Shown piece after piece: positions 2,675-61,586 of a stretch of 64,000 bases of DNA; position 1 is the stretch's first letter; each line of letters begins with the position of its first letter. The notes under the pieces were generated by a model, which did no database searches, was not told the DNA's origin, and saw only the letters and a list, made by a program, of their open reading frames with translations. The translations under genes were made by a program, and so were the position numbers. The stretch comes from a virus: IMG/VR virus record IMGVR_UViG_3300017782_000001; one strand, written 5' to 3'.

Positions 2675-2703
2675 ATTATACACTATTTCTTTTGAATTGT
2701 AAA
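2675..2703 (-). promoter_or_regulatory. Early promoter
   Basis: TTTACA-N17-TATAAT with the shared leader. Confidence 0.8.
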
Positions 2704-2723: not shown

Positions 2724-2996
2724 TTAATTAAATGCGATTAAACTTAATAAGAGACTATTTAGTGCGAATCCGATCGCATTAGATACAATGTAAAGAGTAT
2801 CTTTAGCATATATAGCTCTTATCAAGAAGAGTACTAATCCAAGCCATATTAGAAGTATGAAGTTCAATGGCGGGAGATCAGTTGAATATCCCATAATGTA
2901 TCCGATTGATGTCGGAGCCGTTGCACCGTGGATTAGAATCATTCCAACCCAACCGCAGGTTTCTGAAACATTTATTTTTTTTATTTTATTAATCAT
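2724..2996 (-). CDS. Small 3-TM membrane protein, SemiSWEET/PQ-loop-like
   Basis: Three hydrophobic helices; GWVG..L..GATAPT and IVSN motifs; start adjusted to MINK after AAAGGA. Confidence 0.5.
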   Translation of the reverse strand: MINKIKKINVSETCGWVGMILIHGATAPTSIGYIMGYSTDLPPLNFILLIWLGLVLFLIRAIYAKDTLYIVSNAIGFALNSLLLSLIAFN

Positions 2997-3000
2997 AGAA

Positions 3001-3108
3001 TTTCCTTTCTTTTCCATTTTATAGTACTATTATACACCATTTCTTCTGAAAAGTAAAGGAAAAAATGCAAAAAAGTGCATTTTTATATTCAACAAAAACA
3101 ATGGCTTA
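3001..3108 (-). promoter_or_regulatory. Early promoter module, near-duplicate of 32941-33036
   Basis: TTTACT(3052-3057)-N17-TATAAT(3029-3034); about 90 bp of flanking sequence shared with the copy at 32.9 kb. Confidence 0.8.
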
Positions 3109-3708
3109 GCAAAAAAGTTCAAAAATAAATTTTTTTTGCCAGCGCCAAGTTAATCGTGGCTGAATAAATTTGTCAAAGGGGATGTTATGTTTTTTACAAA
3201 CCTTTAGTTGGATTGCTTTATCTTCTGGAGTCATTAATGAGGTGTCTGTATATGAGTCACCTACCTGTGAAACTCTTAAACCATTTCTTTCACCTAATCC
3301 CCAAACTTCATCAAAGGAAATCTTTTTTGGATCAGCGTGTGCTACGATAGTGCCATGATCGTTTAGCATTCGTGACATCATTGCAACTTGAGGTTGAGGA
3401 TCAGTATACTGAAGTGGACCGAAGTTTAGAATCCAGTCAGCTTTTCTTCTTAAAAGAAATTCAGCGTTGTGAAGGTCATCGACGATGTCTACGTTTGGAT
3501 GAGATACAAGATCAATACCAATTAAATTTGGAACGTGTTCTTTGAATACATTTCCACCACAGCCTAAGTCAACTACAAGATCAGGCTTTGTATTAGCTAT
3601 TTCTTTAGCTAAGTTTAATCCAGATAATTGTCTGTAGAGTGCTAGGTTTCTTTTTTCAAGTTCATCAGAAGATGAGTACCTTGCAATTATTTGTTCTTTT
3701 TCCACCAC
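3106..3708 (-). CDS. Class I SAM-dependent methyltransferase
   Basis: VVDLGCGGN motif I, LIGID motif II; paralogue of its neighbours with C-terminal R..W.W.K. Confidence 0.8.
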   Translation of the reverse strand: MVEKEQIIARYSSSDELEKRNLALYRQLSGLNLAKEIANTKPDLVVDLGCGGNVFKEHVPNLIGIDLVSHPNVDIVDDLHNAEFLLRRKADWILNFGPLQYTDPQPQVAMMSRMLNDHGTIVAHADPKKISFDEVWGLGERNGLRVSQVGDSYTDTSLMTPEDKAIQLKVCKKHNIPFDKFIQPRLTWRWQKKFIFELFC

Positions 3709-4667
3709 CAGTTCAACCTTGGTCGTACTCCATCAGAAAGTTCTGTGGAGTATAATGGGCTTTGTAATCTTCTAAATTTTTCGTTTAGACATTTAATATG
3801 AATGTCATGAAATTGTTCACTTGGTTCTTGTGGATCAATCATGTCACCTTTGTCATGATTCCTATTAATCCAACGATTCCACTCATCAACGGTAGTAGTT
3901 TTTTCGTCGTATCTTCCGATGTATGAGTTAAGTATAGGCCATGTTAGCTGCTTTAGATCTGTCCATTCTGTGATAATAGGCTGTTTCATTTCAGGTACAG
4001 AAAGATTGTAAGGACATAATTCAAGATTAGCTGCGTCTCCAAATTCTTTAATTTTTGCGCGGGTCCAAGGGTAATGAATCATACCTCTTCTATTAAACTG
4101 TTTTTCATCTGATATACGTCCTGGTCTGGCATGGCAACAAATCAATCCATCAGGTCTTAAAACTCTAGCACATTCAAAAATAAGCTCTAATATTTCATCT
4201 TCAGTACCAAAGTTAAAAGGACCAACACATCTAATACCATCGATTGTTTCACTTTTTAGAGATTGTAAATATTCTAAAACGTCCATTACAATGTCTGCAT
4301 TGTTATACCAAGGAAGCAAGTCAATACCTATCATATTATTGATATGCTCTTTCATAATGTTATTTCCACAACCTAAGTCTAATACAACATTACATTTCTT
4401 TTCATTAAAAACACTTACGCAAGCAAATCCTGATCCAGTCTTAGCGTGACTTGTTACTCTAATAACCTCAGACCAATCATTGCTAAAGTGATCCTTTAGT
4501 TTTTCAAGTCTCCATTCTCTTGTAGAGTTAGCTACATATTCAGGATCGTATCTATCACCATCACCAATTTGATCAGCTCTTTTAGAGTATCTTATTTTTT
4601 GCTTTTGTGTTAGCTCAACCGGTTTTGAAATCGGTCCGGCTCGTGTTACTTCTTCTGCCATATCCAA
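3687..4667 (-). CDS. Class I SAM-dependent methyltransferase
   Basis: VLDLGCGNN, MIGID, ARVLRPDG. Confidence 0.8.
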   Translation of the reverse strand: MDMAEEVTRAGPISKPVELTQKQKIRYSKRADQIGDGDRYDPEYVANSTREWRLEKLKDHFSNDWSEVIRVTSHAKTGSGFACVSVFNEKKCNVVLDLGCGNNIMKEHINNMIGIDLLPWYNNADIVMDVLEYLQSLKSETIDGIRCVGPFNFGTEDEILELIFECARVLRPDGLICCHARPGRISDEKQFNRRGMIHYPWTRAKIKEFGDAANLELCPYNLSVPEMKQPIITEWTDLKQLTWPILNSYIGRYDEKTTTVDEWNRWINRNHDKGDMIDPQEPSEQFHDIHIKCLNEKFRRLQSPLYSTELSDGVRPRLNWWWKKNK

Positions 4668-5323
4668 AAAATCCTTTCACGAGTTTTACCATTTTTGACA
4701 GGATCTCTTAAGTAAAATCTTTCATTTTCCTCTACTTTAGAAGCATAGGTATAATCAATTACTGGATCTAAATAGTATTCTAGGTTATGAGCTTTACTAA
4801 ATGCATGCGTTGTTTCAAACGACCAAGGGTATAGTTCTGCTCCTGCTTTGTATCCGTTAAATGGTTTACACAAACAAGCAATTTTTCCATTAGACTTTAC
4901 AAGGTGCTTCATTTGCTCAATCATAGTATGTATAGTTTCAGTGTTGTGGTGGTGTAAAACACCAATAGCCAATATCCAATCAAAAGTATTTTCTTTGAAT
5001 ATATCATAAGCACCTTGAAGGTCAGTGTTTATGTCAGGGCTTCCCCATGTTCCTGGCTCAACGCCTATGACATTTTTTAATCTATTTTTGAAAGGGTTGT
5101 TTCCGCATCCAACATCTAAAACAAAAACACCGGATCCATCCTTCTTAATTTCTTTAAGTAGGAATTCACCAGTGAATTTTCTTGTGTCGTAAGTAAATTT
5201 TCCTACGTACTCATCGTATCCTAACTCTTTACGGGTATATGTAGCCTTCCAATCAGAGTCTCTTTCTTCTATAGATTTGTTCCACCAATCAGAAAGTTCA
5301 AACTGGCCAGTAATATCAATCAT
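4646..5323 (-). CDS. Class I SAM-dependent methyltransferase
   Basis: VLDVGCGNN, FDWILAIGVLHH, LVKSNG. Confidence 0.85.
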   Translation of the reverse strand: MIDITGQFELSDWWNKSIEERDSDWKATYTRKELGYDEYVGKFTYDTRKFTGEFLLKEIKKDGSGVFVLDVGCGNNPFKNRLKNVIGVEPGTWGSPDINTDLQGAYDIFKENTFDWILAIGVLHHHNTETIHTMIEQMKHLVKSNGKIACLCKPFNGYKAGAELYPWSFETTHAFSKAHNLEYYLDPVIDYTYASKVEENERFYLRDPVKNGKTRERIFWIWQKK

Positions 5324-6248
5324 ATATGTTTTCCGTCATTAACTCATAAAAAGGCTTCATATCAATTTCTTTAATGATTTTCATTTTCTTTACATTAAAT
5401 TTTCCAGTGCCTTCATTTTCCATTATATCTTTTACTTTGAATGTTGCTTGAAAAAGCCTGTAGTCACTGTAAGCTCCACACGCAACCCATTCCCTTAGAA
5501 CCCAAGCCATATTAGCTACAGCCATTCCTGTATTAGTTGCTGGATCAAGAGGTACGTGTTCACCATTTTGGTCTTCTGCATCAAATTCTTTACCTACTTC
5601 ATAGGTAATCTTAGGGTGATAAATTCCTCTCGCATCTGCAGCAGTAAGTTTGTATCCAGTAACCTCAACATCGTCATCCAAGTACTCATACTGTAATGCT
5701 TCATCATGAAAAAAGTTAGGAGCATTTGACCATGAGAAATTTGCGTTGCGTGTATTCATGCCGCGCATTTTATTTAACTTAAATTCACCATACATAAAGT
5801 CTGCACCTCTTGCATTTACTTTACGCATATCATTATATTCCCACCTAGATCTAGGTGCATCAAGCTTTTCAATATTAGTAGTAACCATGTTGCAAGAATA
5901 GAATGTAATTTCAGGTGCAAATGAATATCTTACCGCACCTTCTCTTAAATTACATTTAATAAATTCTGCTGCATCCAATTGGCATCTTTCGAAAAGCACA
6001 GATCTTAGACCGCATTGCTTAAAAGTTGCACCTCTTAAATCTGATCCTGTAAAATCACATTCGTCTAAAACGAGCTTTTCGAAAGTCCACCCTCTAAAAT
6101 CTTGATATCTAAAATCACAATTTCTAAATTTTAATTTACCATCGCCTGTTTTGCGATCGTGTTGAGTTATCGTTAAATTTTCTCGCTCTGCTAACAGTTC
6201 TTGTAAGCTACGATCAAATTTTAATTTTCCGTTTCTTGTATAAATCAT
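5316..6248 (-). CDS. Pentapeptide-repeat protein with C-terminal phage domain
   Basis: Tandem pentapeptides such as CDFTG SDLRG ATFKQ, ADFMY, ANFSW. Confidence 0.85.
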   Translation of the reverse strand: MIYTRNGKLKFDRSLQELLAERENLTITQHDRKTGDGKLKFRNCDFRYQDFRGWTFEKLVLDECDFTGSDLRGATFKQCGLRSVLFERCQLDAAEFIKCNLREGAVRYSFAPEITFYSCNMVTTNIEKLDAPRSRWEYNDMRKVNARGADFMYGEFKLNKMRGMNTRNANFSWSNAPNFFHDEALQYEYLDDDVEVTGYKLTAADARGIYHPKITYEVGKEFDAEDQNGEHVPLDPATNTGMAVANMAWVLREWVACGAYSDYRLFQATFKVKDIMENEGTGKFNVKKMKIIKEIDMKPFYELMTENIYD

Positions 6249-6257
6249 TTTTGCCTC

Positions 6258-7772
6258 TTAGCTATACGTTGTTAATGATTTATCTCGCATAGTTCCATAA
6301 CCTACTAGGCCTACAGCGAGAATTAAGCAGGCAGTCATGATTGGGTGCATTCCCCATATTGGGTTTATTATATAATTACCTTCCCAAAAATATAGCGCTT
6401 GCATTTGATATAAACCTGCTTCTAATCTTTCTGCTAAGAAAAACGCAATCAAAAATGCCGGTCTACTAAATTCATATCTTCTCATATACCACCCTAAAAT
6501 ACTAAAGATGGTAAGCATAATCAGATCTTCGTACATTGTAGAATAATATCTAGCTGCTAGTACAGACCAAATAGTTAAAGCTGCCATAACAGGAACCCAA
6601 TAAATTGGCTTAATGTAAACTACTTTTGAAACTTGTCTAGCAAATATAAGAAGTACAACGCCTGAAATAGCTGTGCCAAGCATATATCCCCAATACAAAT
6701 GATGAGTAAATTCTGTATCCTCAATCACCTGCATTGATCCCATTTCAAATCCTACATATAAAAACAATGCCATGATGATAGCAACGCCGCGATTGCCTGG
6801 GATACCAAATAAAAACGCAGGAAGTATAGCTCCAGCTTTGCCGGAATTGTTTGCGCCTTCACTTCCTATTACACCTTTGATATTACCTTTACCAAATGGA
6901 ATTGTTTCTTTTCTACATATTGCTGTAGTTGCAGTATAAGCAGACCAGTCTCCAATGCCTCCTCCAGTTCCGGGTAAGACTCCAACTATAAACCCAATTA
7001 ATGAACCTTGCAAAGCAATGTACCAGTTTTTACCAGTATCAACTATGCCTTGCCATGTTTGCTTAGCGTGTTCTTTGCTGTTTATATGTTCATATTCATT
7101 CTTTTTAGTTAGAACATAAATCATTTCTGGTATAGCAAATAGACCGGCGGTTACAATAACAATTGACACACCATCAACTAGATATTCTATTCCGCCGGTC
7201 CACCTTGGGGTAGAATAAATATCATATCCGACAAGTCCTACGAATATTCCAAGGGCCAAAGCTACTAAGCATCTCAATGTATGCTTAGTCGTAATTAAAG
7301 TAATTAGTGAAAATGATAATATAATCATTCCAAATATTTCTGGAATGCCAACATAAGAACTAATTAATTCGTACATTGGAAATAAGGCAAATCCTATAAT
7401 ACCAAACAACAATCCTCCTAGCGTTGAAGTAGTGATTGCTGCTGACAATGCATAGCTAGCTTTCCCTTGTTTTGCTAAAGGAAATCCATCTACCATTGTA
7501 GCTGCAGTTCCATCAGCACCAGGGATGCCAATAAGAACTGAAGCAAACGAATCTCCAATTGAGCATGACACTAGTACAGCCATAGCAAACAGAACAAAAA
7601 GATATTCTGCACCAGGCGTATCAAACAGCTGAGCCAAACCAAATAACATAATTAATGCTTTGGCTGGACCAGCTGAAGGTATGAGTCCAATTATAGACCC
7701 ATACAGTACTCCTATTGTCACGATAATCCCCCACTGCATATACAGTGGGAGAGTTACTAGAGATTCGATCAT
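6258..7772 (-). CDS. tctA: Tripartite tricarboxylate transporter large subunit TctA
   Basis: Polytopic membrane protein; GLIP, GIPG..GTAATMVDGFPLAKQG, GVLPGTGG, EGANNS, GIPG motifs. Confidence 0.9.
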   Translation of the reverse strand: MIESLVTLPLYMQWGIIVTIGVLYGSIIGLIPSAGPAKALIMLFGLAQLFDTPGAEYLFVLFAMAVLVSCSIGDSFASVLIGIPGADGTAATMVDGFPLAKQGKASYALSAAITTSTLGGLLFGIIGFALFPMYELISSYVGIPEIFGMIILSFSLITLITTKHTLRCLVALALGIFVGLVGYDIYSTPRWTGGIEYLVDGVSIVIVTAGLFAIPEMIYVLTKKNEYEHINSKEHAKQTWQGIVDTGKNWYIALQGSLIGFIVGVLPGTGGGIGDWSAYTATTAICRKETIPFGKGNIKGVIGSEGANNSGKAGAILPAFLFGIPGNRGVAIIMALFLYVGFEMGSMQVIEDTEFTHHLYWGYMLGTAISGVVLLIFARQVSKVVYIKPIYWVPVMAALTIWSVLAARYYSTMYEDLIMLTIFSILGWYMRRYEFSRPAFLIAFFLAERLEAGLYQMQALYFWEGNYIINPIWGMHPIMTACLILAVGLVGYGTMRDKSLTTYS

Positions 7773-7776
7773 TAGA

Positions 7777-8829
7777 TTAGTCTTTTACGTCGTACTTAAA
7801 CCAAACTTTAGCAATTCTTTTTAGATCCGCTTCTGCCTGAGGTGTTTTAAGAGACGTAATATAGCTAGTGTGAGCTTGTGCATCTACACCGTCAATCCAT
7901 GGATAGTTACCTAAACGCTCTTGCAATTTTGCTAGAGATTCAGGGTTGTTAATCATTTTATTAACAGCCTCACGAATATCATCTAAGTATGGATTATCTT
8001 TATGAGTAAACAGCGTCTTTTGCAATCCATCACGGTAACCTTGGTTAAGCAAATAAGCATCATACACTGGACCTGAAGGTGCTACACCATGTGTTGCTTC
8101 ATACACAACTTCAAAAGTACCTTGGTCAGCTGGATTATTTGGATCTCCGTACTTGCCGTTTACTGCATCAACAATACCATGTGAATACCATACTACATGA
8201 GTACCGGCATCGTATTGACGTGAGGATGCTGCTAAAGCAGAAGCCATTGTATCACGGCTACCTTGTAGTAGCTGATCATTAAATGCCTTTCTACGCATAC
8301 CACCTTTTTTGAATCCGCCGACTAAACGCATTTCAGTATTTACGCATGTAAGAAAGTCATCAACCGTAGTGGTACGTTTTGGACCACATTCTAGCATACC
8401 AACTGAAAGCCAATCTGGACCAAAGCCTGATCCACCATCAAGTGGAAAAGTCATTACACCTTTACGATTAGCTACCTTTGAAATCCACATAGAAGAATTC
8501 ATAATTACTACTGGTGTGTAGTCAGCGTAATCAAAATCTCCTACATCTTCGATAAGGAATGCTTCACCATTACCACCATGTGTAATAAGAATCGTAGATT
8601 TATCTGTGCCTGAATAGGCCTTTAAGGATTTTTTACCACGAGCACCAGAAACAAATCTTGGTACTAGTGTATGATCAGTATATTTCTGCAGCTCTTTAAC
8701 TGTGGTGTCGCCCCATAGGGTTGTACCTTGTGCGCCAGGCTGTGAGGGATACTGAACCTCGAGAGTTTCAGCAAATGCTGAAAAGGAAAATGCTGCTGCA
8801 GTGAACAGCGAGATAATTAAGGTTTTCAT
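7777..8829 (-). CDS. Divergent TctC/Bug-like periplasmic substrate-binding protein
   Basis: Signal peptide (AFA-E), YP..PG..GT and GARG motifs, adjacent to tctA. Confidence 0.65.
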   Translation of the reverse strand: MKTLIISLFTAAAFSFSAFAETLEVQYPSQPGAQGTTLWGDTTVKELQKYTDHTLVPRFVSGARGKKSLKAYSGTDKSTILITHGGNGEAFLIEDVGDFDYADYTPVVIMNSSMWISKVANRKGVMTFPLDGGSGFGPDWLSVGMLECGPKRTTTVDDFLTCVNTEMRLVGGFKKGGMRRKAFNDQLLQGSRDTMASALAASSRQYDAGTHVVWYSHGIVDAVNGKYGDPNNPADQGTFEVVYEATHGVAPSGPVYDAYLLNQGYRDGLQKTLFTHKDNPYLDDIREAVNKMINNPESLAKLQERLGNYPWIDGVDAQAHTSYITSLKTPQAEADLKRIAKVWFKYDVKD

Positions 8830-8842
8830 TCATTCTACTCCA

Positions 8843-9487
8843 TTAAGTAATTTTATTCACGGTAATGTAAACATCATCATGATTCTTAGTAAATTCTTCC
8901 GCAGCCTCAGGATCAAACCCAGGTATCTCAAGGAATGAAGTTTTAGGTTCGTATAAACTCCACTTAAACTTCATTTTCTCTGCGAACTGTTTTATATATT
9001 CATCCTCTTCTATCAATCTTTTTTTCATTGTAGTAGAGTTTTCATACATTTCATTATATGACGGATAGACATCATCATCAAAAGACATGATTGCATTCCA
9101 CCATAGAAAGCTTTGTAGTGGCTTACGTTTAAGTAATACCATATAGTCGTTTTTGAAATTATCGTAAATGAATTGCAGGTTATCGTACCTTGCAAACGCG
9201 TGAGATTTTATTACTCGAATACCTTCACCAGCAAATTCTTTAGATATTTCTTCAAGTATGTTATCTTTGCCAATTTTGGCGAGGTCAGTCCAGGACTCGC
9301 CGCAGCCTTGCCCTGGACCCCAATAACTACCTCTATGCCCGTTGAACGTATAACCTTTTTCATTGTGTTTATGAAAATGTAAACGTTCTTCAGATTCGTC
9401 TGATCTATTCACAGGAAGCGAGTGCCTCATGTGAATATCAATGCCACTCCACTTAGATCCGGGTATTCCACAAAACCAGATATCCAT
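8843..9487 (-). CDS. Sulfotransferase-like P-loop protein (G.PGS.W family)
   Basis: WFCGIPGSKWS resembles the PAPS-binding G.PRSGT loop; VIKSH and LLKR.P..S resemble sulfotransferase motifs. Confidence 0.5.
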   Translation of the reverse strand: MDIWFCGIPGSKWSGIDIHMRHSLPVNRSDESEERLHFHKHNEKGYTFNGHRGSYWGPGQGCGESWTDLAKIGKDNILEEISKEFAGEGIRVIKSHAFARYDNLQFIYDNFKNDYMVLLKRKPLQSFLWWNAIMSFDDDVYPSYNEMYENSTTMKKRLIEEDEYIKQFAEKMKFKWSLYEPKTSFLEIPGFDPEAAEEFTKNHDDVYITVNKIT

Positions 9488-9490
9488 TAT

Positions 9491-9519
9491 ATTATACCAT
9501 AATAATTAAAGGATGTAAA
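9491..9519 (-). promoter_or_regulatory. Internal sigma70-type promoter
   Basis: TTTACA-N17-TATAAT with extended -10 TG. Confidence 0.7.
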
Positions 9520-9521
9520 CC

Positions 9522-10388
9522 CTATGCAAAAGAAAAGTTATCAATCGCCATTTCGTCTGATGCGTCATGCTTCTTAAAAGCACCTCTTACTACTGGTTTC
9601 CAGTTAGCAGAAGCATCTTTTAATTCTACCCAAGCTTTACCCATCGCAGACATTTTTTCGTCTGATGCATCAAAGCCGTAGAATTCTGAGCATCTTTCCG
9701 CGCCTGATTTAACAGCAGCAGTACCTTGACAATTAATCCAGAACATACGTTCCATCATTTTTGGCAGTACAGCCATTACTGCGTCTTGCGCTTCTTGATT
9801 TTTATCGCACTCTTTCATAAGTGTTTTAGCACCAATCATTGAATGGAAATGCTCGTCCTTTGCAATCTTAGCATAGGATGTGGAAACAACTTCATCATCA
9901 ATTGATGTTGCCATTGCGTTCCATACTCTTGATGCACGACCTTCAGCAACGTACTGATAAACAGCCGCCATTACTGGATTAGTATCGCCACCAATTTCGT
10001 CAAACAAAGAAGCACCTTTTGACTTCACGTTTGCTTTATCCATTTGCCAAGCGTATTCTTGCTCTAGCTCTTCGTTAGTAAATTTTTCTCCGCGGAGATA
10101 TTCAATGACGTTACGAACCATATCATAGTGCTTAGCTTCGTCATAGACTTGCTTTGACAAAAGCTTAAGATGATTGGGATCAGTTGACGCTGGCTTTTCA
10201 ACAAGTGTCTTACCAATTTCTACAATGTTCATACGTTCATTAAACATACGTCTCTTAAAATTAAAGATTGCTTCATCCAAATCTGGATCGTTACGAAAGT
10301 AAGCCTGTGTTTGTTCTTCAGAACTCTTGAACAGAGGCTCAATGTAATCTGCAACCTTTTTTACAAATTCCTTACCGGTCAATGCCAT
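9522..10388 (-). CDS. Ferritin-like di-iron carboxylate protein
   Basis: E...DEAKH...E...DEHFH four-helix metal-ligand pattern. Confidence 0.75.
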   Translation of the reverse strand: MALTGKEFVKKVADYIEPLFKSSEEQTQAYFRNDPDLDEAIFNFKRRMFNERMNIVEIGKTLVEKPASTDPNHLKLLSKQVYDEAKHYDMVRNVIEYLRGEKFTNEELEQEYAWQMDKANVKSKGASLFDEIGGDTNPVMAAVYQYVAEGRASRVWNAMATSIDDEVVSTSYAKIAKDEHFHSMIGAKTLMKECDKNQEAQDAVMAVLPKMMERMFWINCQGTAAVKSGAERCSEFYGFDASDEKMSAMGKAWVELKDASANWKPVVRGAFKKHDASDEMAIDNFSFA

Positions 10389-10389
10389 G

Positions 10390-10944
10390 TTATGCTCCTA
10401 AAAGTGTTTTAATCTCGTCTGGTATCCAGTGATCTTTCTCTCGTTCCGGATGCCAAACAACTGCTGCAACATTATCTAAAATCCAAGATTCTACATAATT
10501 ATCTTCGTCTGTCACAAGAACCTCAGAATGCTCTGGAGGTTCAACAATCGCAGACCCGTGAAAAGAATTCACTGTTCTGCTATGTCTATATTTATACATT
10601 ATAGAATGTCTAGTGCGTCGATGACCTGTAACATCAATCATCTTTCCGTTAAACAAGTGAGTCAATAAAAATGCTCCATGACATACACCTATAACGGGTT
10701 TGTTTAGTTCCTTAAAGCAGCCTACTGCGTATATTTCTACTCTTAATCTTTCTGGATTATCATCTCCTCCAGTTAAAATAAGAGCATCATTTGCTTCAGC
10801 CAGCTTTTCAATATTTTGATTATTGTTATTTAGTAAGGCTGTAATGTCATGGTCTTTAAGCCAATCATAAAAGCCTCTCTCAATACAATCATGTAAGTAC
10901 CCACCTGAGCTTTCTAAAGTTCTAGTAGATACTAGATACTGCAA
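10390..10944 (-). CDS. Class I glutamine amidotransferase / peptidase C26 (PuuD-like)
   Basis: LILTGG, PVIGVCHG nucleophile elbow, VNSFH, WHPE. Confidence 0.9.
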   Translation of the reverse strand: MQYLVSTRTLESSGGYLHDCIERGFYDWLKDHDITALLNNNNQNIEKLAEANDALILTGGDDNPERLRVEIYAVGCFKELNKPVIGVCHGAFLLTHLFNGKMIDVTGHRRTRHSIMYKYRHSRTVNSFHGSAIVEPPEHSEVLVTDEDNYVESWILDNVAAVVWHPEREKDHWIPDEIKTLLGA

Positions 10945-11609
10945 GATTCTTTTCCTTTATACAGTACAGGAAATAGAGTGTGATCAGATGGTTTTATTAA
11001 ATACTCATGATATGTATTATTATTAGGCAAATGTTTTTCTAATTCTGGCCAATTTGCTTTAATCCACTGAGGCGCTTCAGCTACTGGATAATTCATTTTC
11101 AAATCGTTTTCTCTAATAAACTTTTCCATGCAAGCGTTTTCAATCATGATTTGCCTACGCATGTTTTGAGAGTTACTATACCAGTTATAGTTAGGATATT
11201 CAATATCCCACCCACCAGATTCAAGCCACCAGTTCAAAGATTGAATAGGCTCTCTCATCATCATTAAGATGTCTACCTCAGGTAAATTTTCTTTAATCCA
11301 ATCTAATTGATATGCAAACCAATGACACCTAACAAATCTAACTTTGTGTTCTGGTTGTGGCTTAGAATATGATCTTTCAATTTCATTCATCACCGCGTCT
11401 GGTCCCATCAAATGCATAACGTCAAACATCTCTCCATAGTTATGATATGGACCATAAAATCTATGGTAATGCTCAGTGCTATTTTCTGGATTATCTTGGT
11501 TGTGCTGTAACCAGGATGATTGATCTACTATTGGAGAATTATCTCTAATGATCCATTCAAGCCTTCCCCACCTAGATCCAGGCACACCAGTTAAAAATAC
11601 AGTTTTCAA
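10932..11609 (-). CDS. Sulfotransferase-like protein, paralogue of 8843-9487
   Basis: FLTGVPGSRW, VRCHWF, MMREP..SLNWW, YPNY. Confidence 0.5.
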   Translation of the reverse strand: MKTVFLTGVPGSRWGRLEWIIRDNSPIVDQSSWLQHNQDNPENSTEHYHRFYGPYHNYGEMFDVMHLMGPDAVMNEIERSYSKPQPEHKVRFVRCHWFAYQLDWIKENLPEVDILMMMREPIQSLNWWLESGGWDIEYPNYNWYSNSQNMRRQIMIENACMEKFIRENDLKMNYPVAEAPQWIKANWPELEKHLPNNNTYHEYLIKPSDHTLFPVLYKGKESCSI

Positions 11610-11623
11610 TTTTTACTCCTCAA

Positions 11624-11812
11624 TTATAAAGATACTGAACCTACAGGTTTACAAATGTAATCAACCGTATCCCAAGATCCATCTACTGGCACTTTTATAT
11701 ATTCTGCAAGCATAGTTTCACACTCAGCTTTAGTATCAAACCATTGTACGTCTTGATCTAAGCAAGTTGAACCAGCACAAACTGTCAGCAATATATGCCA
11801 AATTATTTGCAT
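11624..11812 (-). CDS. Small Cys-containing hypothetical protein
   Basis: 62 aa, hydrophobic N-terminus, four Cys; fits the operon spacing. Confidence 0.6.
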   Translation of the reverse strand: MQIIWHILLTVCAGSTCLDQDVQWFDTKAECETMLAEYIKVPVDGSWDTVDYICKPVGSVSL

Positions 11813-11815
11813 GTC

Positions 11816-12340
11816 TTAAATTTTCACCCACTCAACGTAATTTCTATCGTTCCGTTTGCCGTGATCATAAATCCATTTTTCTAATCTAAAATTATACTTA
11901 TGACAAAAATGAATATTTTTCATTATGTTCCAACTATAAAAAGGTATAGCTTCAGATCCTTCCCAAGGATGATCATTGCCATTAGGATTTTGACGCCAAT
12001 GCACAGTTTGTCCAGGCTTTACCATATCACCAAGCTTTTTCATGTATTTGTCAATATGATATTCTGTACCAAAATTAATACTTCCTAAGATAAAGTATCT
12101 ATCAAAGTCCTGCTTAGGTACAAAGTCTTCCCAAGATACTACTTCATCTGTATTTGTTTCAATATAGGGATCAATTCCATACAAGTTAGGGAAGTGTTCT
12201 TTAAGCCAATTATGACCACATCCAATATCTAAAATACGTTCATTTTTATCTATGGTTTTTACTAGCCATTTATATGACCATTCATATTGTCTTGTGTTGG
12301 CTTTCCAATTATTAGCCCAATAATTTTTTATTTCACTCAT
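11816..12340 (-). CDS. Class I SAM-dependent methyltransferase
   Basis: ILDIGCGHN, LYGID, GSINFG; start adjusted to MSEIK. Confidence 0.8.
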   Translation of the reverse strand: MSEIKNYWANNWKANTRQYEWSYKWLVKTIDKNERILDIGCGHNWLKEHFPNLYGIDPYIETNTDEVVSWEDFVPKQDFDRYFILGSINFGTEYHIDKYMKKLGDMVKPGQTVHWRQNPNGNDHPWEGSEAIPFYSWNIMKNIHFCHKYNFRLEKWIYDHGKRNDRNYVEWVKI

Positions 12341-12728
12341 ATGTCGATGCACCCATTTTATCTAAATTTTTATGTGTATTTTTAACAACCTTTTGATTAG
12401 GCATAATAGAAGAAAGCAAGAAAAACTTAAATATAGTTTTTGAATCTTCTTCAGGATTTCCAGTTAAAAACTGATCAATACAATAGCAGTTGTCGATATG
12501 TTTAACATCTTCTAAATGTTTAGTACCAATCACAACACAGTTTTGTATTTCGTTATCGCCAATTAATCCCCATACATAATTTCTTAAGCCTGGGTCGCTT
12601 GGATATTTTCCATCAGCAGTAACTACAATATATCCTAAATCGAATTTATATATTTCTTTTAAGATGAATTCTGCAGCCTCACCGGTTTCTACGTATAGAA
12701 CATTTTGCATATAAAAAGGATGTTTCAT
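12333..12728 (-). CDS. Hypothetical protein
   Basis: 131-aa ORF tightly packed in the operon. Confidence 0.6.
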   Translation of the reverse strand: MKHPFYMQNVLYVETGEAAEFILKEIYKFDLGYIVVTADGKYPSDPGLRNYVWGLIGDNEIQNCVVIGTKHLEDVKHIDNCYCIDQFLTGNPEEDSKTIFKFFLLSSIMPNQKVVKNTHKNLDKMGASTYE

Positions 12729-12729
12729 A

Positions 12730-13176
12730 TTACTCCAATCTCTTGCGCATATAGCAATTAGGTCCGAACTCTACACCTTCAGTAAAAAATTCGCTTACTT
12801 GAACAAATCCAAAATTCTTATATGCAAACAGTGAGTTTTTTCTTGCCATAGTCCAAAGCATATTACAATTTTCACTTAAAGCTTGCTCTTCCAATTCTTC
12901 CATTAACAAAGTAGATATACCTTTTCCCCTATGTTCTTCATCAACTCTTACACCTCTAAGTCTATATTGATATACACTAGATCTGTAGCCGGATATTACA
13001 CCTACTAATTCTTCTTTATCGTAACATCCAAAATATGATGGATTGCTCGCTAAAATCGATTCATCTACTCCACCTAGGTATACAGAAGCATTAACAGGTA
13101 AAATGTTTTTCTTTCCTGGCCAAAGTAATTTCCACTTAGGTAAAATTTCTTCAAATGTTATTTTGGATATTTTCAT
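12730..13176 (-). CDS. GNAT N-acetyltransferase
   Basis: V..EHRGKGIS acetyl-CoA motif A; YKNFGF. Confidence 0.9.
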   Translation of the reverse strand: MKISKITFEEILPKWKLLWPGKKNILPVNASVYLGGVDESILASNPSYFGCYDKEELVGVISGYRSSVYQYRLRGVRVDEEHRGKGISTLLMEELEEQALSENCNMLWTMARKNSLFAYKNFGFVQVSEFFTEGVEFGPNCYMRKRLE

Positions 13177-13177
13177 A

Positions 13178-14422
13178 TTATTTGTTAATGGACATGCCTA
13201 TGCTTTTATATTTCCAACTTATATCTGTTCCACCAATCTGTAATGCTAATTCTTTTAGGTGTTCTTTTTTAATTTTATATTTTTGAGGGTATGACAACCA
13301 TTGGTGAAAAATATCTGAATCTGCATACATATTAAACCAAGTGTTTTTATTGTCCTGCGACTCACACCAAAGTCTATATGAGCCATGTTCTTGTAAAAAC
13401 AATCTGTATATTTTGTCTTCACCTTCAAGTCTATTCCATTTTTTAGTCCAATATTCTAAAAGATAATCGTAACCTTCGCCACTATATTCTTTATCAAATC
13501 CTCTCATCATACGTTCTTTAAGAAATGACGAGTTAACAGAAACCCAAAATTTTATTATATCCTCTACATTAGGTTTATGTATATTAGTAATATATGAAAA
13601 CAAAAGCTGATCTTTAGGAGTGTGTGCACTTAGTTCGCCGCTGTAAGCTCTAGTTCCTTTTCCTCTTACGGCCTCTTGCTTTACATTAAATGTACCATCT
13701 CTCCAAAAATCATGATTGAATTGATTAGTAATATATTTTTTTCTTCCTTCAATTTCATACTTTTCAATATTCCAACCATGCTTAGTAAACTCTTCGCAAG
13801 CTTTAATATCCACCATGTTTCTTACATTTTCACTATGGACTTTTACTAAACGAGGATTCTTATTGTATTTACGTAAAACTTCTGCAACCAAATAAGAATC
13901 TTTACCTCCACTAAATGCTACAACTGGATCTGATTCTGTAATTCTATTAGCAAAATTACTAACGTATGTTTTTAATAATTGATAGTCTGGTTCAACTGTA
14001 GGAGTATTCATGGAATCATGATACATGTAAGAACCAACTTCAGTTACGTAATGATCTGGTTCGACTCTCTTAATAGACTCATACGGTGTAAAAGGACCAA
14101 CAGTATGAGTCTTAAGTAATTCTATTTGAGAGTGCCACACAGTATCAAGAGTGTTGTTTTCCCTAACCTTTCTGATTTGATCAAAGGAAGATGTGACGGA
14201 GTCTTGATTATAGTACAAGTTTGTTGTGCACAAGTGATCACACATAAAAAAGTATTTTTTATCTTTTATATAGACATAGGCAAATTGACCTTTTGGTATA
14301 AAGTCAATGCCATTTTCAATAAAACCTATAACTTCTAGGTCCGTATAGTTTGAATAACCATACGCCCAGAAATTTTTATATTCTCTGAATTGTCTTTTAG
14401 GATTAGTGTTTAGAAACTTCAT
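13178..14422 (-). CDS. Asparagine synthase-like ATP pyrophosphatase (amide ligase)
   Basis: Degenerate Ntn domain (GQFAYV...CDH...LYY...IKRVEP) followed by PP-loop AFSGGKDS. Confidence 0.65.
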   Translation of the reverse strand: MKFLNTNPKRQFREYKNFWAYGYSNYTDLEVIGFIENGIDFIPKGQFAYVYIKDKKYFFMCDHLCTTNLYYNQDSVTSSFDQIRKVRENNTLDTVWHSQIELLKTHTVGPFTPYESIKRVEPDHYVTEVGSYMYHDSMNTPTVEPDYQLLKTYVSNFANRITESDPVVAFSGGKDSYLVAEVLRKYNKNPRLVKVHSENVRNMVDIKACEEFTKHGWNIEKYEIEGRKKYITNQFNHDFWRDGTFNVKQEAVRGKGTRAYSGELSAHTPKDQLLFSYITNIHKPNVEDIIKFWVSVNSSFLKERMMRGFDKEYSGEGYDYLLEYWTKKWNRLEGEDKIYRLFLQEHGSYRLWCESQDNKNTWFNMYADSDIFHQWLSYPQKYKIKKEHLKELALQIGGTDISWKYKSIGMSINK

Positions 14423-14425
14423 CCA

Positions 14426-15514
14426 TCATGCTGCCTTTTCAAATTGTAGGGGATTCATTGGATTAACTCCAAGCATATTTCCCCATTCAGAATAATAATG
14501 TCTCATACCAACTTCATCATGTATAGTTCTATTTTCATGTCTACCATGAAGAATGTTTCTTGCCTCAGTACCTTCTCTCATTGTAGTACCTTGACCTGCA
14601 ACACCAATCAAATCTTCATGTAGGTTACGACCAAATGGTCCCCAAATAGAATTGTGATGTTTGATTCTTGTTTGTCTTTCCTCTGGAGTATCTTTACGTA
14701 GACCATAACCACGAAATTCAATCAGAACTTTATTAGGTCCAAGTGGTGTTACTGAGTCTGAACGATACGCGGAACCCCGTAAGTTGAAATTAAACCCTGG
14801 GAAGAGGTCGACCATGTACCACTGGTTGGGCGGCAGATTGGGAAAAGATAACTCCCCTCTATCCTCAAACCCGTCATACTCTTCATAGTTAACAGTAAAG
14901 CTAGACACGTTAACGTGGCCATTATCAAAAGCAATATTCTTTCTAGCGAAATATTCATCATTAAATCCACTCACTCTATTAAAGTAGTGCATGAAGTCGT
15001 GATAGAATTCACTGTTAGTATCATGCCACAATTTATAGTTAGTATCAATCACAGCTTTGTGATAGTGAAAGACTTCCATTTCTTCTGTATCAATAGCATC
15101 AGCGATACAATCAAATGCACCTGCTGTCCATTCATCTACACTTTGTGTAGGATTAGAATTCAATGTTGTCCATACCATTCCACCATGCCTGACTTCAGTG
15201 TGCAGAGGAGTATAGTCATCCATTAAGAATTGAACTCTTGTCATTGATCCAGACGGAGTACTAAACTTCCCAGGATTCAAGTATGTTTTAATATTGTCGC
15301 CGTTATTAATTGCTATAACGTTTTGTCCAGCAATCTGAGTTGTCCTAAAGTTACCTGCTTCTGGAAGCTCAGATTTGTGACACATAGGTACCCACACTTT
15401 TGAAAAGATTTCTTCTTGTTCGCGTAGATAGATGCTATGATCGTTATAACATTCGCTAGAGATGTATTCTATATTCGGGGACTCTAACCACTTCTTATGA
15501 TTTCTCGGTGCCAT
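14426..15514 (-). CDS. msmA: Methanesulfonate monooxygenase alpha-subunit-like ring-hydroxylating oxygenase lacking Rieske cluster ligands
   Basis: IFSKVWVPMCHKSELPEAGNF N-terminus; catalytic NYKLWHDTNSEFYHDFMH and NLHED recalled from MsmA; no CxH...CxxH. Confidence 0.75.
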   Translation of the reverse strand: MAPRNHKKWLESPNIEYISSECYNDHSIYLREQEEIFSKVWVPMCHKSELPEAGNFRTTQIAGQNVIAINNGDNIKTYLNPGKFSTPSGSMTRVQFLMDDYTPLHTEVRHGGMVWTTLNSNPTQSVDEWTAGAFDCIADAIDTEEMEVFHYHKAVIDTNYKLWHDTNSEFYHDFMHYFNRVSGFNDEYFARKNIAFDNGHVNVSSFTVNYEEYDGFEDRGELSFPNLPPNQWYMVDLFPGFNFNLRGSAYRSDSVTPLGPNKVLIEFRGYGLRKDTPEERQTRIKHHNSIWGPFGRNLHEDLIGVAGQGTTMREGTEARNILHGRHENRTIHDEVGMRHYYSEWGNMLGVNPMNPLQFEKAA

Positions 15515-15532
15515 ATAGCTCTCCTTAAATAA

Positions 15533-15850
15533 GTTGCCGGATTCTGTTTCGAGGCTCCGGCGGGCCCAGAGATTATGCCGCTAGGCGCATCTCAGGAGCA
15601 AAGTTATCGTTTGCATTTACGTTTTTGATTCTCCACTGCCTTCTTGTATCTGTCGATCCTATTTCGCCCCCATCATAATAAGTCTTGCATGCCGCGGTGA
15701 ATAATTGTTTATGCAAATATATTCAACGCAAAATTTTCTAAATTGCCAAAGTAGTACTTCGTCCATTATTACCTCAAGACTTATTATGGTGGAGGCGGCG
15801 GGTACTGCCCCCGCGTCCAGCCTACATCCATCCAGTTTCACTGAATCATT
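15533..15850 (-). ncRNA. ssrA: Two-piece circularly permuted tmRNA, alphaproteobacterial type; tag ANDNFAPEMRLAA
   Basis: Acceptor piece ends GCGGGGGCAGTACCCGC-CGCCTCC-ACCA at 15787. Coding piece starts GGGGGCGAAATAGGATCGAC at 15671 and forms the acceptor stem with a G3-U pair. Tag ORF at 15614-15573. Confidence 0.93.
15659..15766 (-). CDS. Putative 35-aa peptide in the tmRNA intervening segment
   Basis: GAGGT RBS, then ATG, MDEVLLWQFRKFCVEYICINNYSPRHARLIMMGAK*. Confidence 0.35.
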   Translation of the reverse strand: MDEVLLWQFRKFCVEYICINNYSPRHARLIMMGAK

Positions 15851-15852
15851 TT

Positions 15853-15912
15853 TATTTATACTAGTATTATACCATACTTTTTTTTGAATGTAAACCGCTA
15901 ATTTTATAAATA
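15853..15912. promoter_or_regulatory. Divergent promoter hub: early and late promoters for tmRNA (-), late promoter for the plus-strand operon
   Basis: Minus: TTTACA(15889-15894)-N17-TATAAT(15866-15871) and TATAAATA(15853-15860). Plus: TATAAATA at 15905-15912. Confidence 0.8.
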
Positions 15913-15926
15913 GTAATAGAAAATCA

Positions 15927-16496
15927 ATGGAGAAAAACATGCGCAACTTTCTCGCGGTTGCTTTTTTTGTAATGATTGCCGTGACCCAGGCAAGCGCGCA
16001 AACTACTTCAAATGTTAATACAGATTCAAAGTCTAATTCAACTGTAAATACAGATGCTAATTCTAAGACTATTGTTATCTCGCCACCACCTTCGGCTATT
16101 AGTCCAAGTATTGGCTCGTCATCATCTGATCTCTGTTTATCTGGAGTCTCAGGTGCTGTTCAGACTCAGATCCTTGGTGTATCTACTGGGGAAATGGTCC
16201 GCGATGAAAATTGCGAAAGATTAAAAATATCTAAAACCCTATATGATATGGGTATGAAAGTGGCTGCGGTGTCAGTCCTTTGTCAGGATCGTAGAGTATT
16301 TGATGCAATGGAAATGGCAGGCACTCCTTGTCCATTCTTAGGTGAAATTGGTGACAAAGCAACTGACGGTTGGAAAGATAACCCAGGTCGCATACCACCA
16401 GCTGAAGTAGTGGAGACAAAGGATGACGTTCAAGAACGTAATGCAAAGATTGGCGCTGGTATCGGTGGCCTTGCTTTGCTCCTACTCTTACTCTAA
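15927..16496 (+). CDS. Exported Cys-containing protein with C-terminal membrane anchor
   Basis: Signal peptide (ASA-Q), PPPSAISP..DLC, D.NCERLK, GTPCP, ends GAGIGGLALLLLL. Confidence 0.75.
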   Translation: MEKNMRNFLAVAFFVMIAVTQASAQTTSNVNTDSKSNSTVNTDANSKTIVISPPPSAISPSIGSSSSDLCLSGVSGAVQTQILGVSTGEMVRDENCERLKISKTLYDMGMKVAAVSVLCQDRRVFDAMEMAGTPCPFLGEIGDKATDGWKDNPGRIPPAEVVETKDDVQERNAKIGAGIGGLALLLLLL

Positions 16497-18806: not shown

Positions 18807-19178
18807 ATGGTAGAAAAAAAATTAGAACCAGGATCTAAATATAACCATTTAGATAAAGATGGTGATGGTATTGTAACTGATGAGGAAATGATGATGGAAG
18901 CAAAAATGATTGAGCTAGAAGATAAACGAAGTGATATGGAAAATGAAGATAAAAAGCAAGACGCACAAAGAAACATGGCGTGGTTTGCTTTATGGGGAAT
19001 GCTACTATATCCTATAGTTGTTGTTTCTGCAACATTGGCTGGTTTAGACAAAGCAGCCTCTATCTTAGGTGATATGGCTGCTGTCTATTTCGTATCAGTT
19101 GCTGCTATCGTGGCAGCATTCTATGGTAAAGAAGCTATAGAAAAAAGAAGTAAACCTGCTCCTCCTAAAAAGTTTTAG
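18807..19178 (+). CDS. EF-hand plus 2-TM membrane protein, possible holin
   Basis: DKDGDGIVTDEE EF-hand loop, two TM helices, basic C-terminal tail. Confidence 0.6.
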   Translation: MVEKKLEPGSKYNHLDKDGDGIVTDEEMMMEAKMIELEDKRSDMENEDKKQDAQRNMAWFALWGMLLYPIVVVSATLAGLDKAASILGDMAAVYFVSVAAIVAAFYGKEAIEKRSKPAPPKKF

Positions 19179-19567
19179 GAAGTAGATCTATCATGCATAG
19201 CTAATGCAATAATTCCATAATGAACAACTTTAAGAAGGTCTGCTCGGTTTAGACCTTCTTTTTTTCCATATCGCTGAGAGTACTTAAGTACATTACCTAA
19301 AGCGAATCCCATACCATGACCACAGTCTTCAATGATCTGTGTAGCTTGATACTTGCCTTGTGAGTAATGAGCATCGTATGTTCCGTCAATATAAGTCTTA
19401 ATTTCTTTTAGAAGATCACCTTCATTAAAAGCGTATTCAGGATCTGGACCTACGAGATTAATAATATAGTCTTGATCAGTCGCAAACTCTTCAGTTGATG
19501 AATCAAAGTTAAATTTGATTTGACGATATTCGTCTTCCACCGCAGCGCCAGTGTATTTAATTGTCAT
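19175..19567 (-). CDS. DUF3310 family protein
   Basis: HYSQG..QA...I....GFALGNVLKY..RYGKK....DLLK..HY. Confidence 0.75.
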   Translation of the reverse strand: MTIKYTGAAVEDEYRQIKFNFDSSTEEFATDQDYIINLVGPDPEYAFNEGDLLKEIKTYIDGTYDAHYSQGKYQATQIIEDCGHGMGFALGNVLKYSQRYGKKEGLNRADLLKVVHYGIIALAMHDRSTS

Positions 19568-61246: not shown

Positions 61247-61586
61247 AGGGTGGGGAAGTGAACTCATTTTTGCCACTAATGATATGTACTGCGGTAAACT
61301 ATTAAGGTTTAACCAGCAAAAAAGCTTTTCAATGCATTTACATAAAGAGAAGCATGAAACTTGGCATATACTTGAAGGGCAATTTAGGCTAGAAACAATC
61401 AATACTATTGATGCTTCTAGAAACATTGAGATTTTAGAAACCGGAGATACAAAAGTTATTCCGCCTATGTTACCACATAAACTAACATGCATTTCTAACG
61501 TTGGTATTATTATTGAAGTCTCGACACCAGATTCAGTCGAGGATAACTATAGAGTTGAACCTGGAGATAGTCAAATTGAGAAGTAA
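61215..61586 (+). CDS. Cupin (sugar isomerase-like)
   Basis: KGWG.E, YCGK, SMH.H..KHETW, EVST.D..EDNYR. Confidence 0.8.
   Translation: MATQLSGQVNKGWGSELIFATNDMYCGKLLRFNQQKSFSMHLHKEKHETWHILEGQFRLETINTIDASRNIEILETGDTKVIPPMLPHKLTCISNVGIIIEVSTPDSVEDNYRVEPGDSQIEK

Follow-up and report, generated by a model that had tools for sequence, protein, structure and literature searches.

The DNA stretch analyzed here (the window, 64,000 nt, IMG/VR record IMGVR_UViG_3300017782_000001) belongs to an uncultured marine T4-like myophage and contains an island of 16 genes, g01 to g16, at positions 3106-15514 (Table 1). All positions refer to the window, and L-numbers denote other viral loci or contigs. The best reading of the island is that it consists of an unrelated, common oxygenase gene (g01, together with g06) and an enlarged, virus-restricted "import-and-tailor" cassette, in which the genes of a binding protein (g11) and a TctA permease (g12) are linked to genes for methyltransferases, sulfotransferase-fold proteins and further enzymes. 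The invariable link between transporter and methyltransferase genes, the virus-only binding protein and the catalytic motifs, which are intact across the assigned island enzymes, favor the uptake of one anion followed by tailoring in the cytoplasm. An organic anion would thus be imported and then oxidized, amidated or acetylated, sulfated and methylated; judged from the sequences and the predicted folds, the chances for this reading are about even.

Linkage of transporter and tailoring genes

Three genes, g01, g11 and g09, were used as anchors for searches in IMG/VR. The neighborhoods of g11 were fetched for 80 loci from at least 175 contigs, and 29 of these loci were well flanked, i.e., had at least 4 kb on both sides. 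TctA adjoined the binding protein in 79 of the 80 loci, with a median gap of 4 nt. A methyltransferase gene was present in 63 loci, a sulfotransferase-fold gene in 38, and a gene for the cupin-like HxD...H protein F5 in 29, while g01 was found in none of them. Within 4 kb of the transporter in the well-flanked loci, a methyltransferase gene was present in all 29 cases, a sulfotransferase-fold gene in 18 and F5 in 16. One contig (loci L084 and L177) contains 13 of the 16 window genes with 30-80% identity, reordered by block transposition, and it also encodes F5, which is not found in the window. Locus L001 matches g12 to g16 and the downstream flank with 56-91% identity.

The island is a mosaic of modules in three tiers. 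The first is the core of TctA, binding protein, methyltransferase and, often, a sulfotransferase-fold protein. The second is a block of four genes with the order sulfotransferase fold, class I glutamine amidotransferase, di-iron protein and sulfotransferase fold (g07-g10). The third comprises the trio of PP-loop enzyme, GNAT and g04 as well as the pentapeptide protein g13.

A preliminary description of this DNA had proposed an operon in which an importer is combined with tailoring enzymes, and the counts given above and the L084/L177 contig show that these genes are inherited as a set. It had further assigned all genes to one 15-gene pathway, a claim that would fall if the genes assorted independently. 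This is the case for g01 and g06, both of which are missing from all 80 transporter loci: g01 occurs alone in phage HMO-2011, and g06 follows the oxygenase. Because g01 assorts independently, the region is not one pathway; for the other genes the linkage holds, in tiers. A possibly organosulfur substrate had also been suggested, but nothing that was tested points to such a compound.

The transporter

The permease g12 had many transmembrane segments in a hydropathy scan, as is characteristic of a TctA-type permease with 12 such segments. The motif G-x3-G-x3-G-x2-P-x-x-G, as given in PMC5812351, is readable in transmembrane segments 1 and 7.

The binding protein g11 had no match in Pfam, including PF03401, and no match in the PDB, neither with the single sequence using phmmer nor with the family profile. 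As the sequence and profile searches of the PDB were blank for g11 as well as for the sulfotransferase-fold family, folds were needed. The best PDB matches of the AlphaFold2 model of g11 in Foldseek were BugD (9.7e-10), MatC, AdpC and TphC, with E values from 1e-9 to 1e-6 and TM-scores of 0.5-0.66, and TBP was also among the matches.

Members of the g11 family are encoded on at least 175 IMG/VR viral contigs from ocean and freshwater. A scan of 185,579 prokaryote species genomes (one genome per species) with two conserved peptide patterns, which could miss distant cellular relatives, yielded six genomes. The six hits are contigs of metagenome-assembled genomes from unrelated phyla. In all six a phage-type TctA gene lies beside the g11 relative, four of them carry the methyltransferase and/or the sulfotransferase-fold family, and two carry phage neighbor families such as PhoH, DUF6071, f10, f11 and f7. 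These contigs look like mis-binned phage DNA. The isolate-phage collection contained no record with a g11-type binding protein or a phage-type TctA. Taken together, the g11 family appears to be essentially virus-only.

A search with the g11 profile in 1.84 billion cluster representatives revealed 45 clusters at E values of at most 1e-30 and 596 at most 1e-3. The weaker tier mostly lacks Pfam families, and one member had a sub-threshold TctC match (5.5e-4). In another protein, P0155 (768 aa), a domain of the PrpF family (2-methylaconitate/aconitate isomerase type) is fused to a distant g11 relative, which is a weak hint that the wider g11 family may bind aconitate-like tricarboxylates.

TctB is a defining but poorly conserved subunit of tripartite tricarboxylate transporters (TTT); TctA systems of archaea lack it, and its function is unknown (PMC5812351). 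No TctB gene was found in the island, in which the gaps of at most 34 nt leave no space for an open reading frame (ORF), and none was found in the related loci. Because TctB is absent, the transporter is described here as TTT-like in its working and not as a standard member. A membrane ORF of 97 aa at positions 2724-3017 was considered as TctB and rejected, because in other loci it is not found together with TctA; it had no relevant matches, and neither family f7 nor the equivalent ORF in L001 is related to it. Family f7 comprises proteins of about 72 aa with 2-3 transmembrane segments, the genes of which lie just downstream of the binding protein gene in 12 of the 80 loci (e.g., L134:1485-1712, L106:12418-12636 and L124:12427-12645, and nine further loci). 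It is absent from the window, and it is also found beside a sulfotransferase-like gene in Marine virus AG-345-D19. A role of f7 as TctB substitute in other loci is possible. L001, the closest relative, the TctA of which is 91% identical to g12, encodes an additional secreted protein of 118 aa (1507-1863) between TctA and the pentapeptide gene, which the window does not have.

The methyltransferases

The four methyltransferases g05, g14, g15 and g16 fell into one blast cluster and thus represent a single family, in which D-x-G-C-G is invariant. The family profile matched CFA synthase (1.5e-7), TehB and UbiG in the PDB. A maximum-likelihood tree revealed that g14 has an orthologue at L084:4433-5146 (branch support 100/100), g15 at L084:5116-5997 and g16 at L085:4830-5501. 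Since each of the three pairs with its own orthologue of the L084/L085 lineage and not with a second copy from the window, the paralogues are old and separately maintained. The fourth, g05, forms a separate long branch, and its nearest relative is 39% identical. In comparison with L001, the ratio of nonsynonymous to synonymous substitutions (dN/dS) was 0.05 for g14 and 0.13 for g15. The latter has about 90 additional N-terminal and about 100 additional C-terminal residues. In many loci, the methyltransferase encoded next to TctA or the binding protein is 45-55% identical to g16. The paralogues of both families, i.e., four methyltransferases and two sulfotransferase-fold proteins, are old and separately conserved, which suggests several distinct positions or steps and not redundancy.

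The sulfotransferase-fold, amidotransferase and di-iron block

The predicted structure of g07 has a sulfotransferase fold. In the VIA comparison the top 11 matches were all sulfotransferases, with Z scores from 10.7 down to 7.1 (Cpz8), while P-loop kinases reached at most 7.0. The best matches were TPST1 (Z 10.7, root-mean-square deviation 3.3 A over 172 aligned residues), TPST2 (10.2) and Stf9 (9.5), and Foldseek also retrieved TPST2 (2e-3, probability 0.99). Invariant in the family are G-x-P-G-S-(R/K)-W-S near the N-terminus, H47, H96 and W128, and R119 is conserved. We take the loop to be a permuted variant of the canonical 5'-phosphosulfate loop (PKxGTTW or PRSGTT). The second paralogue, g10, has 63% identical orthologues in L083-L085.

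A search for APS_kinase in five large related contigs yielded marginal matches in three of them (24-29 bits at a cut-off of 21.1, about 90 of the 152 profile positions); as they are marginal and of partial coverage, they are no evidence for synthesis of 3'-phosphoadenosine-5'-phosphosulfate (PAPS). Two of the contigs (L100 at about 11786-12031 and L122 at about 6248-6490; records G002 and G006) have a P-loop ORF of 144-155 aa with about 29 bits. It lies 2-4 kb from the cassette and covers the N-terminal part of the profile, which is too weak for a call of PAPS synthesis.

The amidotransferase g08 scored above the cut-offs of PF07722 (39.2 bits) and PF00117 (37.7 bits), and the motifs GVCHG and WHPE are readable. 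Its gene adjoins the di-iron gene in the window, in L170 and in L171-L175. For the di-iron protein g09, the ligands E57, E84, H87, E149, E179 and H182 were invariant in 12 homologues, and PF05138 was found on 10 of 33 homologues. A lead from the Atlas places g09 with viral "RNR-family" clusters (0.94), near DUF455 and AurF. The protein g09 is a probable oxygenase.

The best NCBIfam match of g08 was the gamma-glutamyl-CDP-amidate hydrolase (4.8e-14). This raises a further explanation, i.e., that the group made and transferred by g08, g02, the sulfotransferase-fold proteins and the methyltransferases is not sulfate but another activated group, for instance a phosphoramidate-like one, as in the O-methyl phosphoramidate pathway of Campylobacter. 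That pathway uses a PAPS-like cytidine donor and two methyltransferases. The non-canonical donor loop of g07 and g10 and the lack of PAPS synthesis genes among those found would fit such a chemistry. Nevertheless, it is very unlikely: the 52.9 bits of g08 fall far short of the 250 bits required for the family, and the scores of generic amidotransferase models were similar; no homologue of a glutamine kinase, a cytidylyltransferase or a phosphoramidate transferase was seen, and the transporter would be left unexplained.

The L084 contig and four others (L172-L175) have the order of g07-g10 as well. In these four, the block is followed by methyltransferase, F5 and radical SAM genes, and no transporter adjoins it. 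On the contig that carries the loci L175 and L089, block and transporter are about 30 kb apart, and Marine virus AG-345-D19 has a sulfotransferase-fold gene without the transporter. Because the enzyme block also exists at a distance from the transporter or without it, two other explanations stay alive, namely the decoration of a macromolecule and the aggregation of independent cargo genes (see below).

In the case of decoration, the oxygenase, the sulfotransferase-fold proteins, the methyltransferases and the acetyltransferase would post-translationally modify a phage or host protein (a virion fiber or a secreted Cys/Tyr-rich protein) or a glycan, and the transporter would supply a precursor or sulfur/sulfate. 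The best structural matches of g07 are indeed protein tyrosine sulfotransferases, but their Z scores are only about 1 above those of small-molecule sulfotransferases such as Stf9, and the profile of the methyltransferases is similar to enzymes with small-molecule substrates (CFA synthase, TehB, UbiG). Bacterial neighborhoods of hydroxylase, sulfotransferase, methyltransferase and acetyltransferase genes, sometimes with a PAPS synthetase, have been predicted to modify co-encoded tail-collar or collagen-like proteins (PMC2938197). However, none of the 80 loci had a collagen-like or glycine-rich ORF at a distance of up to 7 kb from the transporter, no tail-collar protein was present among the Pfam-scanned neighbor families, and the island itself encodes no obvious substrate protein. 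A candidate lies just across the tmRNA, where a secreted protein of 607 aa with repeated DPSCPGY-type motifs is encoded; in L132 and L162, homologues of it lie next to the cassette. Altogether, decoration is unlikely. The strict linkage of methyltransferase and transporter is easier to explain if the methyltransferase acts on the imported solute.

Two secreted proteins are encoded divergently across the tmRNA. In the 607-aa protein (16423-18246, plus strand), five repeats of the Cys-Pro/Gly-Tyr type (DPSCPGY-like) are present, and the tail is long and acidic. The second (15927-16496, plus strand; 189 aa) is rich in Ser/Thr and has a C-terminal hydrophobic anchor. Neither has a match in Pfam, NCBIfam or PHROG, and both are possible targets if the enzymes modify proteins. 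Pfam analysis of F5, of family F6 and of the ORFs across the tmRNA gave nothing decisive.

The PP-loop enzyme, GNAT, g04 and the pentapeptide protein

The profile of the PP-loop enzyme g02 matched MJ0690 (9e-6), TtuA, NAD synthetase and GMP synthase in the PDB, and weak matches were obtained with TIGR01536, WbuX and LarE; searches of the PDB with the single sequences of g09, g07 and g02 using phmmer gave nothing useful. The orthologues of g02 adjoin a GNAT gene in L084/L177, L097 and L073. The acetyltransferase g03 therefore travels with g02 in these loci, and also with g04 in all of them except L073. In L084/L177 and L097, a homologue of g04 separates or flanks the genes for the PP-loop enzyme and the GNAT. 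A scan of viral contigs for the PP-loop family yielded two loci, and the g02 cluster contains near-identical copies on contigs of up to 147,790 bp.

The pentapeptide-repeat protein g13 has orthologues in L001 (83%), L084 (65%) and L175 (44%). The matches of its C-terminal part are clusters known only from viruses, and DUF7666 is a lead for this part. It is a non-enzymatic passenger or accessory.

The oxygenase and the cargo slot

The first gene of the island, g01, encodes an oxygenase with a catalytic mononuclear-iron domain, as shown by a PF00848 score of 30.4 bits (cut-off 24.9) and a readable EFYH...H motif. The ligands of a Rieske [2Fe-2S] cluster (CxH...CxxH) are missing, and there is no Cys in residues ~60-130. 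The Rieske motif is also missing in MsmA from viromes and from HMO-2011 (PMC4433239). Over its full length, g01 is 72% identical to gp61 ("MsmA") of HMO-2011, a SAR116 podophage, and more than 600 IMG/VR stretches match it at above 80% identity. For g01, 80 loci were fetched from IMG/VR, and blastn revealed that the gene almost always follows the tmRNA; a DUF932 gene usually comes next within 1-4 kb. The order of tmRNA and oxygenase is conserved in L036-L047, L064, L065, L073 and L075. As g01 stands alone in HMO-2011, it is a neighbor of the cassette and not a part of it, i.e., an independent and very widespread marine-phage gene. Homologues of the small protein g06 adjoin or lie near g01 in L008, L030, L031 and L065; it travels with the oxygenase and not with the cassette.

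Other genes are found in this place as well. In L178, a g02-like PP-loop gene follows the tmRNA directly, without the oxygenase. Thus, the gene after the tmRNA is variable, and the site behaves as a hot spot for the insertion of cargo. In L005 (10261-12320), two AMP-binding (adenylating) enzymes and an OpuAC-type glycine-betaine binding protein are encoded between the oxygenase and the pair of TctA and binding protein. In L073 (7636-9606), a B12-binding radical SAM enzyme and a cupin-like protein are encoded in the same interval.

Such variability would be expected if auxiliary genes that have nothing to do with each other had accumulated in a hypervariable slot and acted one by one on host metabolism, with the transporter scavenging a carbon or energy nutrient during infection. 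The clear independent assortment of g01 and g06 fits this explanation, as do the varying contents of the slot, which include the genes just named in L178, L005 and L073 and which extend over 1-4 kb to DUF932 in L008, L044, L064 and L080, and the separate occurrence of sub-modules. On the other hand, the same families stay linked in very divergent phages and in differing orders, the binding-protein family lacks a host-like counterpart in cells, in contrast to typical scavenging genes, which are copied from hosts, and each paralogue is separately conserved under purifying selection. Independent cargo is therefore also rather improbable as an explanation for the whole island.

Proposed function and significance

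According to the favored reading, g11 would capture a small organic anion in the periplasm of the host and hand it to the permease g12, and the uptake would proceed without TctB. In the cytoplasm the solute would be methylated by g05 and g14-g16; the linkage of methyltransferase and transporter genes is the observed basis of this step. It may be oxidized by the di-iron protein g09 together with the glutaminase or gamma-glutamyl hydrolase g08, a role that the cupin F5 might have elsewhere, and g07 and g10 may transfer sulfate to it, or a related group taken from a PAPS-like donor. In this lineage, the PP-loop enzyme g02 could additionally adenylate and amidate the solute, and the GNAT g03 could acetylate it. 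The product would be a compound that is made only in infected cells.

Several observations weigh against this reading. The binding protein is too divergent for the Pfam model of TctC, and its fold match is moderate. The sulfotransferase-fold proteins carry the non-canonical P-G-S-R/K-W loop, and no PAPS synthesis gene was identified. The cupin-like hydroxylase F5, which is common elsewhere, is missing from the window. The enzyme block lies far from the transporter or occurs without it in other phages, and a sulfotransferase-fold gene also occurs alone; hence, the enzymes need not act on an imported solute. Lastly, the slot is hypervariable, and some of the neighbors may be just co-located cargo.

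A bolder form of the favored reading is that viruses have invented a small-molecule pathway, in which a specific dissolved organic acid, possibly a tricarboxylate, enters infected cells via the phage transporter without TctB and is converted to a multiply methylated, sulfated and amidated compound specific for infected cells; this is conceivable, but on the doubtful side. If it is true, the compound might have a role in signaling, might inhibit competing phages or grazers, or might be protective as a solute, and the version in the window, in which four steps would be methylations and two sulfations, would be the most elaborate one.

As a rule, the auxiliary genes of phages encode single enzymes of host origin. 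The cassette differs, because the phage lineage keeps its own high-affinity uptake system with a binding protein that has almost no cellular relatives, and because the transporter is locked to methyl- and sulfate-transfer enzymes. In addition, the system is proposed to work without the third subunit that defines TTT transporters, and it is thus a natural test of whether TctB is dispensable. The identity of the ligand would reveal which dissolved seawater compound is drawn by infected cells, and whether phages make metabolites of their own.

Island layout and flanking genes

The ORF listing revealed 16 intact ORFs, which are all on the minus strand and run from 15514 down to 3106. Neighboring ORFs are separated by gaps of at most 34 nt or overlap by up to 22 nt. 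The preliminary description had reported co-oriented, tightly coupled genes directly after the tmRNA, and this layout is correct; its number of 15, however, is one too low, and its own list adds up to 16. Nearly all of its family calls are backed by Pfam, profile or fold evidence. All features are summarized in Table 1.

Table 1. Features of the island and of its immediate surroundings, in the order of the genes.
Feature	Position	Strand	Evidence or characteristics
tmRNA, alpha-type, permuted	15532..15898	-	Rfam RF01849 97.4 bits, RF04321 92.8 bits
g01, Rieske-less MsmA-like oxygenase, catalytic domain only	14426..15514	-	PF00848 4.5e-7
g02, PP-loop ATP pyrophosphatase (adenylating), 414 aa, N-terminal domain of unknown fold	13178..14422	-	SGGKDS invariant
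g03, GNAT N-acetyltransferase	12730..13176	-	PF00583 4.8e-14
g04, 131-aa protein, third sub-module member	12333..12728	-	no Pfam, NCBIfam or PHROG match
g05, class I S-adenosylmethionine (SAM) methyltransferase, paralogue 1 ("second MT" clade)	11816..12352	-	motif ILDIGCGHN
g06, 62-aa Cys-rich protein, hydrophobic N-terminus	11624..11812	-	no recognized family (Pfam, NCBIfam, PHROG)
g07, sulfotransferase fold, paralogue A, first of block	10932..11609	-	AlphaFold2 pLDDT (predicted local distance difference test) 85
g08, class I glutamine amidotransferase / C26-type gamma-glutamyl hydrolase	10390..10944	-	PF07722 8e-10, PF00117 2e-9
g09, ferritin-like di-iron protein (PaaA/PaaC-like)	9522..10388	-	ligand set E57, E84xxH87, E149, E179xxH182
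g10, sulfotransferase fold, paralogue B, last of block	8843..9487	-	same family as g07, 22% identity
g11, secreted periplasmic TctC-fold solute-binding protein, signal peptide	7777..8829	-	AlphaFold2 pLDDT 86
g12, TctA permease	6258..7772	-	PF01970 2.6e-83, residues 17-441
g13, pentapeptide-repeat protein, phage-specific C-terminal domain	5316..6248	-	PF13599 1.4e-14
g14, class I SAM methyltransferase, paralogue 2	4646..5323	-	PF08241 9e-5, above cut-off
g15, class I SAM methyltransferase, paralogue 3	3687..4667	-	motif VLDLGCGNN
g16, class I SAM methyltransferase, paralogue 4, last island gene	3106..3708	-	motif VVDLGCGGN
Promoter-like TTTACA-17-TATAAT, upstream of tmRNA	15866-15894	-	11/12 matches
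Promoter-like TTTACA-17-TATAAT, g09/g10 gap (sole sizeable gap of the island)	9491-9519	-	11/12 matches, consensus match only
Promoter-like TTTACA-17-TATAAT, past island end	2675-2703	-	11/12 matches

The dN/dS values of island genes versus orthologues in L001, L084, L171, L005 and L008 were 0.05-0.17, which indicates purifying selection and places the ORFs far beyond chance ORFs; the values are rough, because synonymous sites are near saturation. The GC content of the island (0.32-0.40) is similar to that of the remainder of the window. A megablast search of the island against isolate phages yielded no match.

The tmRNA gene ends 18 nt upstream of the first island ORF. ARAGORN did not find a tmRNA, and this result was overruled by the Rfam match. 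The tmRNA is the upstream edge of a cargo slot, which extends to the DUF932 gene (735-1682 in the window), and lies outside of the cassette. The assignment to the marine T4-like myophages is based on PHROG matches to DnaB helicase, gp43 polymerase, major head protein, portal, sheath and large terminase; in its major head protein, the phage shares 61-66% identity with Phage C48C1, Methylophilales phage Melnitz and Pelagibacter phage HTVC008M. Another record, G001, is 99% identical to the window from position 18228 onward and ends exactly there, about 2.3 kb before the tmRNA. An assembly break at this point would fit a population-level variability of the island.

The three promoter-like sites have the same form, and all are located within intergenic gaps. 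However, such matches were overall no more common than in shuffled sequence, and thus the three sites are leads only. The -10 hexamer of the site between g09 and g10 ends 4 nt before the ATG of g10, and therefore a transcript would be leaderless, or the site may be inactive. No convincing terminator was found within the island.

Further genes of the window include three ordinary phage auxiliary genes. Two on the minus strand encode the thymidylate synthase ThyX (PF02511; 19557-20246) and a DUF3310 protein (19175-19567). The third, a carbamoyltransferase-like gene on the plus strand (61501-62481), is 33% identical to a family that neighbors the cassette in other phages.

Comparison with known systems

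No publication on a TctA/TctC cassette of phages was found in a literature search. What comes closest is an entry for a viral contig of SUP05, "tctA, protein domain hit only" (PMC4164917). A pelagimyophage survey makes no mention of the cassette; its text contains no tmRNA, methyltransferase or sulfotransferase, and "transporter" is used solely for curli secretion (PMC7029224).

The phage system resembles the TTT family (TC 2.A.80) in the strong Pfam match of g12 to TctA with the duplicated glycine-rich motif, in the secreted type II binding protein g11, the best structural matches of which are Bug/TctC proteins, and in the adjacent and probably translationally coupled genes of the two. It differs in that TctB is missing, the binding protein is missed by PF03401 and its family is nearly phage-only, and the system is always methyltransferase-linked and encoded by lytic-type T4-like phages.

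Next, the neighborhoods described by Iyer et al. (2010, PMC2938197) also combine an oxygenase with genes for P-loop sulfotransferase, methyltransferase and acetyltransferase. The logic proposed for them is hydroxylation followed by sulfation or methylation of the new hydroxyl, which is a lead in favor of the import-and-tailor reading. They contain beta-hydroxylase/PhyH dioxygenases, a PAPS synthetase and a collagen-like or tail-collar substrate, but no transporter, whereas the window has di-iron and Rieske-less oxygenases and a TTT-type importer, and no substrate protein was detected. The combination of a co-encoded substrate of this kind with a double-stranded beta-helix hydroxylase was not found in the window, from which F5 is absent. 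The neighborhoods of Iyer et al. are computational predictions and not characterized pathways.

Split amidotransferases (GuaA, NAD synthetase and the sugar type WbuX/WbuY) are similar in that an adenylating PP-loop enzyme and a class I glutaminase are encoded in one island. In contrast to these, the genes g02 and g08 lie apart and are not found together in every case; the partner of g08 is the di-iron gene and that of g02 the GNAT gene, and the scores against these families are all far below the cut-offs.

The last example is gp61 of HMO-2011, which is annotated as "methanesulfonate monooxygenase" and shares with g01 the loss of the Rieske ligands. In HMO-2011 it is found alone among unrelated genes, whereas in the window g01 adjoins the cassette.

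Taken together, the constituent kinds, i.e., a TTT-type transporter and tailoring enzymes, are already known, and the cassette is not a new category. New for the window are the tiered modules, the fixed order of sulfotransferase fold, amidotransferase, di-iron protein and sulfotransferase fold, and the findings that the four methyltransferases are old paralogues and that the oxygenase is independent.

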